From contig JANMQY010000144.1 of NCBI GenBank assembly GCA_031370785.1, forward strand, positions 32,001 through 96,000: 64,000 bases of DNA, read 5' to 3'. How positions within the stretch are numbered: the stretch's first letter is position 1; each line of letters begins with the position of its first letter. Origin of the DNA: Candidatus Eiseniibacteriota bacterium. GTDB taxonomy: Bacteria > Eisenbacteria > RBG-16-71-46. The position numbers are program-made. This document shows, piece after piece, positions 45,001 to 48,000 of the stretch.

Positions 45001-48000
45001 TGCTCGACCGCGCGCAGCGCACCCTCATCGCGCTGAACGGCGTGAACACGAACCAGAACGAGATTGAGCCCGCATTCTCGGGCGATGGGCAGAAGATGGC
45101 GTTCGTCCGGCAGATCGGCCTCTCGCTGCGCGTGCGCCTGGTGAATGGCGTCAACGACCAGCTGATTCCTCTGCCAGGGCTCGACACCACTGCCACCTAC
45201 AACGATTTCTCGCCGTCGCCGGACCAGACCGCGAATCGCATCGCGCTCTGCTCGGATCGGAGCGGAAACTTCGACGTATTCGTCTACGACCGTGGCGGCG
45301 AGTCGCTGATGGTCCTGCCGGATCTGGTCTCGGATTCGAGCGACGTCGACCCAACGCTCTCGGCCGACGGACGCTTCCTCTGCTTCGCCTCGAGCCGGAT
45401 CGGCGGATCGGGCGGATTCGACCTCTACCTCTACGACCTGACGACCCGGAGCTTCATCACGCCGCCGGCCGCGCTCAATACCGCGCAGGATGAGCGACAT
45501 CCATCGATTGGAGCGACCGGCGCCGCGGTCGCGTTCCAGTCCAACCGCTCGACTGGGCTCGGGAAGAACGACATCTTCCTGTGGCTGCGCTCGACCGGCG
45601 CCGTAAGTCAGCCCCCGGGGCTTGCCAACGCCGGCAACGACATCGAGCCTTCGCTGCGCTGGCCGTGAGGCTCTCGCGCCGCAGATTCCTGGGGCTGGGC
45701 GCCGCGGCCTCGGCCTCGCTCATGGTCTCGAATGCGCTCGAGACCCTGTTCGCGCGCGCCGCATCCGGGGCGGCTTTCCGCGCCGAGGGGTACGGCCCTC
45801 TTCTCAAGGATCCCGACGGACTGCTCGATCTTCCCGCGGGCTTCCAGTATCGCGTGCTCTCGACCGCGCGCCTGAAGGCCGACGCGGACGCGCGGTTCAC
45901 CCAGCGCCTCACCAACGGCGAGCTGGTTCCGCCGCTTCACGATGGTATGGGCGCATTTCGCGGCCCGGCGGGGATCACGGTGCTGGTGCGCAACCACGAG
46001 CTCAACTTCGAGGATTCGCCGAGCGTGGACGCACGGCGGGAGCGGCCCTACGACCCGCTCGCGCGCGGCGGCACCACGACCCTGTGGGTGGATGGCGAGC
46101 GCCGACTGGTGCGCGCGTTCCCGAGCCTCTCGGGGACGACGCGCAATTGCGCGGGCGGCGTCACGCCGTGGGGCTCATGGCTTTCGTGCGAAGAGGCGGT
46201 GAACCTTCCGGGCGAAATCGATTCGATCAATCACGACCGCACTCCCAGGGCCAGCAGGCGCCATGGCTACGTGTTCGAGGTGGACTCGCGCAGCGAGGGG
46301 CTGGTCGATCCCTTGCCGCTGGTCGCGATGGGACGCTTCCGTCACGAGGCGGCGGCGGTGGATCCCGCGACCGGCGTCGTCTACCTGACCGAGGATCGCG
46401 TCGATGGCCTGCTCTATCGCTTTCGGCCCGAAGTCGTGATGAAAGGCTCCAGGCGAGCGCAGGCGCTCACGGTAGGCGATCTCGCGAAGGGCGGAACGCT
46501 GGAAGCGCTGCGCATCATCGAGCGCCGCTCGGCCCGAACGCAGAACCACGACGAGGGCGAGCCCGCGCCCACCTCGCGCGCGACTCCGATCGGAAAACCC
46601 TGGAAGGTCGACTGGGTCCCGATCCCCAACCCGGATCCGGACATGGACATGGAGTGGGATCCGACCGACAGCCAGGCCGCATCTCCGGTCGATCGCCGCG
46701 AGCGCACCGCATCCACATCGACACGCGCGCAGGGGTTTGCGCTCGGCGCCGCGCAGTTCGCGCGCAGCGAAGGAATCGCGATCCGGAATCGCGTGCTGTT
46801 CTTCTGCTGCACCGACGGCGGATCCGCGAAACTCGGACAGGTGTGGCAGTTCGACGTTCCAAAACAGGAGCTGATGCTGCTCGTCGAGCCCAACGATCCG
46901 GGAGCGCTCGACGGACCGGACAACCTGACCCCCGCACCCAACGGCGATCTCATCGTGTGCGAGGACGGAATACGAGACGACTATGTCATCGGCATCACAC
47001 CGCATGGACGTCTCTATCAACTCGCACGCAACGCGTACAACGACATGGAATTCGCGGGCGCGTGCTTCGCGCCCGATGGGCGCACGTTGTTCGTCAACGT
47101 GCAGGAGCCGGGCATGACGTTCGCGATCTGGGGACCATGGCGAAAGCGACGCGGCTGAATGCGTTGCAGACGAATCGCTCGAAACTCCGCGCTTCACTCG
47201 CTTTCGCGTTTTCATTTTTTTCCAGAAGCTGCGCGCTATTGTCGCTATTGATCGAAACTGCTGTCGACAAATACGAGCGACATGTTCATCAACAAAACCG
47301 CGCGCAAAAAATCTTCTTGCCGCGGATGGATTCAAGAGCGATAAACCTCGGCACCGTTCGTGGGGAAACCGACTCCTTCGCGAGCGAACGGAAATCGTCC
47401 TTCCAATCACGCAGACGACTCAGAAGGGTCGAAGCGCACCAGATCCAGACGGCGAGCAGAAACCTTGCAGCGCTACCAGGGTCAGGTGACAGGGGAAGGT
47501 TTCGGCAATCGCGAAGGGACAAGGAGGTCCCCAGATGACGCAGACGCTGGACAAGGACGTTTCGCAGGCCGCCACACCGATCGCTCCCTCGAACTCCGGC
47601 CTGCGCGTGCCGCGTCGCTGGACGCGGGCCGGCGTCCATCCGCTCGACGAGATCTCGTGGGACAAGCGCCGCACCGTCATCTCGAACCCCGACGGCTCGG
47701 TCGTATTCCAGATGAACGAGGTCGAGGTCCCGGCCGGCTGGTCGCAGCTCGCCACCGATATCGTGGTCAGCAAGTATTTCCGCAAGGCCGGCCTCCCGGG
47801 CACGCCCGGTCACGAGACCAGCGTCCGCCAGGTGGTGCACCGCCTCGCTCACACCGTGCGCGTCGCCGGGGAGCAGGCCGGAGGCTACTTCGCCGGCCCT
47901 GAGGACGCCGAGGCGTTCGAGGCCGAGCTCGCGTTCATGCTGGTGCACCAGATCGGTGCGTTCAACTCGCCGGTATGGTTCAACTGCGGGCTCCATCACG

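Follow-up and report, generated by a model that had tools for sequence, protein, structure and literature searches.

The question of how lineages without the repressor NrdR control their ribonucleotide reductase is raised here by a 64,000-nucleotide stretch of DNA from Candidatus Eiseniibacteriota bacterium (assembly GCA_031370785.1, contig JANMQY010000144.1; hereafter designated the window), in which an initial annotation had described a covarying multi-helix leader RNA at 47346..47537, in front of the B12-dependent reductase gene nrdJ, as a candidate riboswitch or cis-regulator of a new family. That position was borne out, with nrdJ beginning at 47535 directly downstream (Table 1; positions count along the window). 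Judged from sequence comparison, the nrdJ leader is a real, lineage-specific cis-regulatory RNA without an Rfam match, in a family that lacks NrdR; to this extent the initial description stands, but a riboswitch is not the best reading of it, translational control by a protein being likelier than a new riboswitch.

Across the 206 genomes searched within the phylum, family f1, to which the window belongs, has 88 genomes besides the window's own, and nrdJ was found in 80 of these; close relatives of the NrdJ protein are mostly Ca. Eisenbacteria records. The class I small-subunit family nrdB was found in 0 of 89 genomes, and nrdD, encoding the class III enzyme, was not found in the window's genome. 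Upstream DNA was taken from about 75 family loci, from which 70 complete leaders of 25 genera were delimited; three further loci contributed the SD region only, and L026 was broken off by a contig end. Throughout these 70 loci, all of one Ca. Eisenbacteria family, a conserved sigma70-type promoter of the form TTG, 17 nt, TATAA-like is followed by a leader of about 185 nt and then by nrdJ; when the -10 box and the start codon are both included, the leader length is 182–325 nt (median, 206). Four of the 70 promoter pairs were placed or corrected by hand, and a strict consensus promoter scanner made no call on the -35/-10 pair of the window, from which transcription would start at about 47351. 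A PhoX-like C-terminus, as encoded upstream in the window, was present in 20 of the 70 loci within the available upstream DNA. Two RNA runs (X1 and X2) contained a strain of about 95% likeness on contigs of 57 kb and 31 kb at flat depth, a pattern that suggests DNA within the library and was not taken as transcription, and the leader was without coverage in two others (X3 and X4).

Table 1 Features of the nrdJ locus, in window positions
Feature	Position	Strand	Remarks
PhoX-family gene	45581..47158	+	Context only; ends upstream of the promoter
Sigma70-type promoter	47317..47345	+	-35 TTGCCG (47317-22), spacer 17 nt, -10 GATAAA (47340-45); equivalent pair before 70 leaders
P1, 5'-terminal hairpin with large loop L1	47354..47391	+	93.9% of cells paired; 4 compensatory events against 0.6 in the null
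Pseudoknot 5' strand, CCUCGC-type, in L1	47374..47383	+	10-bp duplex with 47509-47518
P2 5' strand, CCUUCC	47399..47404	+	Pairs with 47494-47499; permutation p 0.024
Junction AAUCA and helix P3	47405..47436	+	CGC/GCG base, internal loop, variable hairpin
P4, long interrupted hairpin	47437..47488	+	Double changes in 13/15 pairs; 15 tree events against 3.3 in the null
P2 3' strand, GGAAGG	47494..47499	+	Position of the upstream GGA site
Pseudoknot 3' strand	47509..47518	+	Shares 3 nt with the SD-hairpin 5' arm
SD hairpin	47516..47531	+	Stem of 5 bp, closed by C-G under an ANGGAX-type hexaloop, AAGGAG (47521-26); putative CsrA site
nrdJ, B12-dependent (class II) ribonucleotide reductase	47535..50708	+	1057 aa; only reductase found in the genome

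The statement that the genome has no NrdR was confirmed and extends to the family, in which 0 of 88 genomes scored above the cut-off and one held a 21-bit fragment. NrdR is also missing from families f2 (0/10; the tallies of this family include an unpublished genome, G073) and f3 (0/3) and is present in most other families; for comparison, the accessible text of PMC13584703 gives NrdR in 77% of bacterial genomes. The genomes are incomplete, rplK being found in 46 of 89, yet nrdJ and csrA were found in more than 90%. When NrdR-box cores were sought at positions following PMC13584703 (in excerpt), they occurred in none of the 70 leaders with promoters, in all seven nrdJ loci of NrdR-bearing sister families and in 17 of 23 distant nrdJ loci. 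NrdR, which controls the same gene by DNA-level repression and whose boxes occur in sister families and distant nrdJ relatives, is absent here both as protein and as boxes.

Strong matches to the RNA occur only in front of nrdJ. When genomes of the order were searched with a model covering the 5' 69 positions, a single hit of at least 40 bits was obtained in each of 37 out of 102, at nrdJ loci; the one lying on another contig (L218) likewise leads into the start of an nrdJ gene. Eleven weaker hits (24–32 bits) away from nrdJ were rejected as paralogues, lying in or antisense to coding-like sequence or missing the rest of the element. A 5' pattern gave 36 matches in metagenomes, of which 11 stand in front of nrdJ and one more is incomplete; the other 24 are without the 5' strand of P1 and look like chance or other elements. 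A phage copy was likewise dismissed, the exact 18-nt pattern being absent from viral contigs. As stated initially, there is no Rfam match, either for the window leader or for 20 homologous loci; one chance hit of 20 bits falls upstream of the leader at 47191-47227, and a scan of 11 sister-family and other NrdR-less loci gave chance hits only. The Rfam nrdJ motif RF03034 is named for the same gene, and its 80-position model had no match in the window's genome at E ≤ 10, a cut-off that no positive control reached, nor in a cmscan of 21 leaders; on covariance-model search, the nrdJ leader would thus be set apart from it. In the literature searched (titles and abstract starts, with most subscription papers outside), there was no description of an nrdJ leader RNA or of CsrA control of nrdJ, and no paper combining CsrA, ribonucleotide reductase and nrdJ; the term nrdJ was absent from the accessible portions of PMC5737381 (main text) and PMC10043782.

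The region 47340-47545 of the window folds with a z score of -3.0, the median across the 70 leaders being -1.26, with 20 leaders at or below -2. A structural alignment was made of 35 of the 70 leaders, picked by eye as the most alignable, so that the set favours the motif. On this alignment, a hand-named structure of 44 pairs was 85.5% paired, with changes on both sides in 28 pairs, as compared with 37–41% in slid controls, and 0 of 500 shuffles reached it; unsupervised RNAalifold returned only P1 and P4 (16 pairs, 13 with double changes). Because kinship inflates double-change counts, the changes were mapped on a tree and compared with a null of 1000 replicates per helix. P1 and P4 passed this tree-aware test (0/1000 in both; event counts in Table 1), but P2, P3, the inner P1 stem and the SD hairpin were not significant, and the inner P1 stem was discarded. 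The missing significance is partly due to invariance and, for P2, also to a one-column misregister in the alignment. The base helix of P3 is 94% paired without covariation, and a permutation of cognate against other-genus strands of P2 gave p values of 0.024–0.027. The covarying multi-helix fold described initially therefore holds for P1 and P4, which survive the objection that related sequences inflate covariation, whereas P2, P3 and the SD hairpin show no tree-aware covariation, and the count of 36 pairs in 14 sequences was not reproduced. Similarly, the CCUUCC/GGAAGG helix and UCACGC junction that had been called conserved are present in the window, but CUUCC was found in 30 and CACGC in 49 of the 70 leaders, so that neither motif is universal.

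That P1 and P4 alone pass the tree-aware test would suit a constitutive structure, in which mRNA half-life and translation rate would be set, without any signal, by an unchanging fold and a stabilising hairpin at the 5' end. The same may be said of the start of P1, a few bases past the inferred start site in all leaders, and of the window leader having no terminator-like site, U-runs occurring in only 3 of the 70 leaders. We regard a role of this kind as improbable, since several features exceed the needs of a tuning element: an exact 15-nt SD hairpin found in 66 of 88 family genomes as against 4 of 117 other genomes of the phylum, the extra GGA sites and mutually exclusive pairings described below, and the coincidence with NrdR loss. 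Three other mechanisms were tried and rejected, namely transcription attenuation, on the terminator and U-run counts just given; a leader peptide, an SD-like motif with a start codon occurring in only 16 of 70 leaders; and an HDV-like ribozyme fold, prompted by the CUCCUCGC loop, which we take to be a motif of such ribozymes, the alignment by eye having no conserved 3-bp inner stem.

A part of the leader structure that the initial annotation had not named is a pseudoknot, identified from strand complementarity, which joins the loop of P1 to a GCGAGG-type strand adjoining the SD hairpin. The duplex alone amounts to -16.2 kcal/mol in the window, before loop penalties, and a pseudoknot of at least 6 bp was found in 34 of the 70 leaders, a figure that rises to 39 when 5 bp are enough. 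Cognate and other-genus strands were compared on segments defined by position, each genus being represented by one sequence and six leaders with insertions or shifts being excluded. For 34 leaders of 18 genera, duplex energies were -14.1 kcal/mol for cognate, -12.4 for other-genus and -7.6 for shuffled strands, the advantage of cognate over other-genus strands having a p value of about 0.001; for 64 leaders, the p value was 0.0025. Compensatory variants occur in L001, L007, L013, L023 and L038. The pseudoknot overlaps the SD-hairpin stem by 1–4 bp in most loci, which would shorten that stem, and also competes with the inner P1 stem; where 16–37 nt are inserted before the SD hairpin (L006, L008, L036 and L068, and the metagenome loci L290 and L291), it stays beside P2, uncoupled from the hairpin. 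P2 and the pseudoknot are both without support in genera g2, g3 and g14 (30 leaders), which retain the promoter, P1 and the SD hairpin, this split from the core having been drawn after the motifs had been seen. Two further pairings were rejected: a kissing loop between L1 and the SD, complementary above shuffles and without cognate advantage (p = 0.71 in all leaders and 0.53 in g2, g3 and g14), and a pairing of CCUUCC with the SD, likewise without cognate advantage (p = 0.97).

A knotted domain of this kind, comprising P1, the pseudoknot, P2 and the three-way junction, may be a metabolite aptamer for a dNTP, a dNDP, the dATP:ATP ratio or adenosylcobalamin, whose ligand would stabilise the pseudoknot and thereby open or lock the SD hairpin, either unaided or, as in moaA, by controlling access to CsrA sites. 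The cognate advantage and compensatory variants, the overlap with the SD hairpin and competition with the inner P1 stem, the position kept beside P2 despite insertions, as expected of a compact domain, and the conservation of unpaired junction bases all speak for it. Moreover, the lost regulator, NrdR, senses nucleotides, and riboswitch-plus-CsrA precedents exist in moaA and Legionella thi, as far as the accessible portions of the sources go. An aptamer nevertheless appears rather unlikely to us. Strong hits occur only before nrdJ and, among 102 genomes, before no other nucleotide or B12 gene; P2 and the pseudoknot are unsupported in the 30 leaders of g2, g3 and g14; few bases outside the helices are invariant; and CUUCC, CACGC and the pseudoknot of at least 6 bp, at the frequencies given above, make no near-invariant ligand core. 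As for B12, the cobalamin riboswitch RF00174 in its Streptomyces nrdABS form also links the cofactor to ribonucleotide reduction, but, unlike the nrdJ leader, it precedes B12-independent class Ia genes (PMC12528414, in excerpt). The RF00174 model matched neither the window leader nor the 20 homologous loci scanned, though it detected both a positive control and the canonical copy that the genome carries elsewhere (109 bits), and no second reductase was found, so that a B12 switch would have nothing to switch to. The wider proposal, in which the knotted domain is a new deoxynucleotide (or B12) aptamer class gating CsrA sites and the SD, an RNA sensor and CsrA together having replaced NrdR family-wide, is also unlikely in our estimation.

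The ribosome-binding-site hairpin placed initially at the end of the leader was recovered in all 73 leaders for which the SD region was available, though it is displaced by other pairing in the window's own minimum-energy fold. In each of them, a C-G-closed loop of the A(N)GGA(X) type lies over the SD, the only universal element of the leader; the loci being kin, 73/73 represents far fewer independent events. The loop is an ANGGA pentaloop in 48, an AGGAX pentaloop in 16 and an ANGGAX hexaloop in nine leaders, the first A being invariant and N being G, A, U, C or absent, and the stem has at least 5 bp in 69 of 73. The same C-G-closed loop was present in 18 of 18 further loci, 11 of which had been found through the 5'-half pattern alone, although some of the 18 are near-duplicates of earlier loci. 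Control genes of the same family did not have it (rplA 0/30, rplJ 0/27 with two wrongly started picks in the set, nusG 0/23 and csrA 0/20; total 0/100). Among 571 SD-bearing ORFs of the window's genome, such a hairpin was found in 41 with a stem of at least 3 bp and in seven, nrdJ included, with a stem of at least 5 bp. The hairpin is an element of the CsrA type, which the initial annotation had not made of it. Two counter-points concern the loop, namely that any hairpin holding an SD shows GGA in its loop and that GGAGG SDs of the genome are already preceded by CA or CAN in 60 of 224 cases (27%).

Additional GGA motifs accompany the hairpin. The motif CA(N)GGA was found 19–65 nt before the SD GGA in 41 of the 70 leaders and 14 of the 25 genera, as compared with 5/70 in an equal control window and 64/672 (about 10%) in the genome background; the window leader and 11 of the 25 genera are without it. 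Such upstream sites extend as CA(N)GGAXG in 38 of 44 cases, N and X being free, and they are kept in genera without the CCUUCC partner, so that pairing does not explain the site. Within the last 75 nt, 69 of the 70 leaders contain at least two and 47 at least three A(N)GGA motifs, the corresponding values being 40% and 13% for 276 genes whose SD already supplies one. Outside the SD loop, A(N)GGA motifs lie about 25–50 nt upstream and in the 5' arm of the hairpin, where a GGA occurs in 66 leaders and forms part of a third A(N)GGA in 55 of them. The window leader has two primary sites, about 6 nt apart, when primary sites are counted. In full-length folds restricted to nested pairs, the closing pair of the SD hairpin had a probability above 0.5 in 33 of 70 leaders and of 0.0 in the window. 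For the window leader, a nested fold containing P1, P2 and the SD hairpin was calculated at -70.1 kcal/mol, and one with the pseudoknot strands held open at -61.9; in the free minimum, at -80.2, pairing of the 5' end with the start region takes the place of P1 and the SD hairpin. Several folding states are thus within reach, and the energy calculation cannot rank them.

A CsrA protein is encoded in 82 of 88 family genomes and aligns without gaps to the solved CsrA/RsmE proteins, retaining L4, T5, R6 and R44. According to the excerpted text of PMC4005645, Csr/Rsm proteins recognise A(N)GGAX presented on a C-G-closed stem, binding AGGGA and AAGGA pentaloops tightly and a buried GGA very weakly; PMC4066749, also in excerpt, has the dimer bridging sites 10–63 nt apart and gives at least three sites, with pairs less than 60 nt apart, as the criterion for a target leader. 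We put at about even the chance that the nrdJ leader is a CsrA translational operator gated by RNA structure, which would have taken over the lineage's only reductase from NrdR. The CsrA dimer would bind the SD loop, together with the upstream site when this is free, and block ribosome loading, whereas folding of P1, the pseudoknot and P2 would bury the helper GGA sites and weaken the SD hairpin, favouring translation. In most genera, the 5'-half strands CCUUCC and, in L1, CCUCGC are complementary to the extra GGA motifs, which would thus become buried in P2 and the pseudoknot. The sign may also be the opposite, CsrA at the 5'-arm and upstream sites opening the hairpin as at E. coli ymdA, where activation involves CsrA bound to a site in the SD-hiding hairpin and to one upstream (PMC7652899, in excerpt). 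Repression is somewhat the better supported of the two and is the default reading because the exposed loop is bound tightly and a buried GGA is not. In all this, the motifs, their spacing and the complementary 5'-half strands are established by sequence comparison, and CsrA binding is what we infer.

Other observations on CsrA are mixed. FliW was not found in the window's genome, two simple scans gave no CsrB-like array, and autoregulation failed as a positive control, the SD of csrA itself in the family not being of the C-G-closed A(N)GGA type (0/20, as above); csrA leaders of family f18 carry CAGGAYG motifs in 6 of 6 cases. CsrA occurs also in NrdR-bearing families, so that its distribution does not track the RNA. 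Few Eisenbacteria CsrAs are predicted to repress B. subtilis hag, which is not equal to being inactive, E. coli CsrA failing in the same assay (PMC13443453, in excerpt). CsrA also leaves the CA-CGC junction, the GAC of L1 and P4 unexplained, and for this reason, as well as for the pseudoknot staying with P2, an aptamer and a second protein are retained as candidates. Such a protein may be NrdJ itself, acting by translational feedback, or a lineage-specific RNA-binding protein, the GGA motifs then being by-products of SD and helix pairing. The restriction to a single gene and a single family would fit, as would the junction bases that CsrA does not explain, and the rplA SD region, equally conserved in the same genomes and not of the CsrA type, indicates that conserved SD structures can serve other proteins. 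Binding of another protein, however, predicts neither the fixed A and free N of the SD loop nor an upstream CA(N)GGAXG that is unpaired and varies at N and X, and no candidate protein emerged, the search for one being unsystematic; we judge it quite unlikely.

The nrdJ leader resembles the target leaders of CsrA/RsmA, such as the SD hairpin of P. fluorescens hcnA, in that its SD lies within an A(N)GGA(X) loop whose stem is closed by C-G (PMC4005645, in excerpt) and in its helper GGA sites within 10–63 nt (PMC4066749, in excerpt), and E. coli ymdA in having GGA inside the SD-hiding hairpin (PMC7652899, in excerpt). It differs from the known CsrA targets in that the gene encodes an essential ribonucleotide reductase of a non-proteobacterial lineage, with flagellin and FliW not found, and in that the sites, whose binding by CsrA is predicted, are built into a pseudoknotted multi-helix domain. 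With the E. coli moaA Moco RNA and the Legionella thi TPP riboswitch, as described in accessible excerpts, it shares leader structure and the partial burial of CsrA motifs within helices; unlike those widespread aptamer families, it belongs to one family and one gene. Further sources drawn on, likewise in excerpt, were PMC5338858 and PMC8346122.

Collectively, the leader would, if the CsrA operator holds true, provide a concrete example in which control of an essential enzyme of DNA-precursor synthesis has passed from the DNA to the RNA level. It would also give the CsrA of Eisenbacteria, a very conserved protein, a first candidate target, in a genome in which neither flagellin nor FliW was found, and, should the knotted domain bind a nucleotide as well, it would represent a new riboswitch class.

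The nrdJ leaders of the sister family f2, which lacks the ribonucleotide reductase repressor NrdR (loci L077–L084), were longer, about 400–450 nt, and had in common blocks of their own (e.g. GCCCCCGC), together with a GCACC..CC / GGA.GGGUGC helix resembling P2, the CCUUCC/GGAAGG helix of the leader in the window's family (f1). A compact GACCUCG...GCGAGG pair was present in two of the f2 loci, both from one genus. No match to Rfam or to the covariance model of the 5′ 69 positions of the f1 leader was obtained with the upstream regions L077–L084, and a CsrA-type Shine-Dalgarno (SD) hairpin was not seen there on inspection by eye. 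NrdR was also not found in two further families of the phylum, f6 (0/6) and f10 (0/2); none of the three upstream sequences inspected there (L085, L253, and L254) matched the f1 nrdJ leader.

The full f1-type leader, followed by an nrdJ of 84% identity, occurred moreover in two records titled Binatia and Actinokineospora (L108 and L136), which may represent mis-binned contigs, mislabelled records, or transfer. Two copies of nrdJ, each with the SD hairpin, were found in genomes G089 (contigs C257 and C284) and G159 (C65 and C67), as would arise from either a strain mixture or a duplication.

Several other RNA elements were met. The genome of the window (G000) contains a canonical cobalamin riboswitch (locus L258), followed by an apparent TonB-dependent receptor gene, and three copies of a small repeat, the copy on contig C75 being flanked by a perfect 34-bp inverted repeat; this repeat is possibly a mobile element or a candidate CsrA sponge. 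Just 5′ of rplA, and overlapping its SD sequence, a CCACG...ACCACGGGAGG element is conserved (L178–L207; 30/30 loci when a few substitutions are allowed), which, lying between rplK and rplA, is possibly an L1-binding site. Two metagenome contigs (L282 and L294) have in common an intergenic element unrelated to the nrdJ leader, in which a hairpin precedes a terminator-like stem that carries eight consecutive T residues.

RNA elements located in genome G000
Feature	Position	Strand	Score	Related copies
Small repeat with two AGGAU-loop hairpins	C75:12077-12228			C11:26142, C30:46769
Canonical cobalamin riboswitch	C114:3729-3908	(-)	109 bits	

Upstream of csrA, 20/20 f1 genomes contain GCCGATA (L091 and L261–L280), with a TAAG/TCAAG box ~15 nt farther upstream, a pair that is similar to the consensus of sigma28 promoters. 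Despite this promoter-like sequence, neither flagellin nor FliW was found in G000. The short ORF downstream of f1 csrA looked FlgM-like by eye, without a Pfam match. In family f18, GGCAGGAYGC, which matches the upstream site of the nrdJ leaders in the f1 genus g14, precedes the csrA start by ~25 nt at 6/6 loci (L092–L097), four of which additionally have UCAGGAYGA upstream of the gene. These f18 motifs are likely to be sites of CsrA autoregulation.
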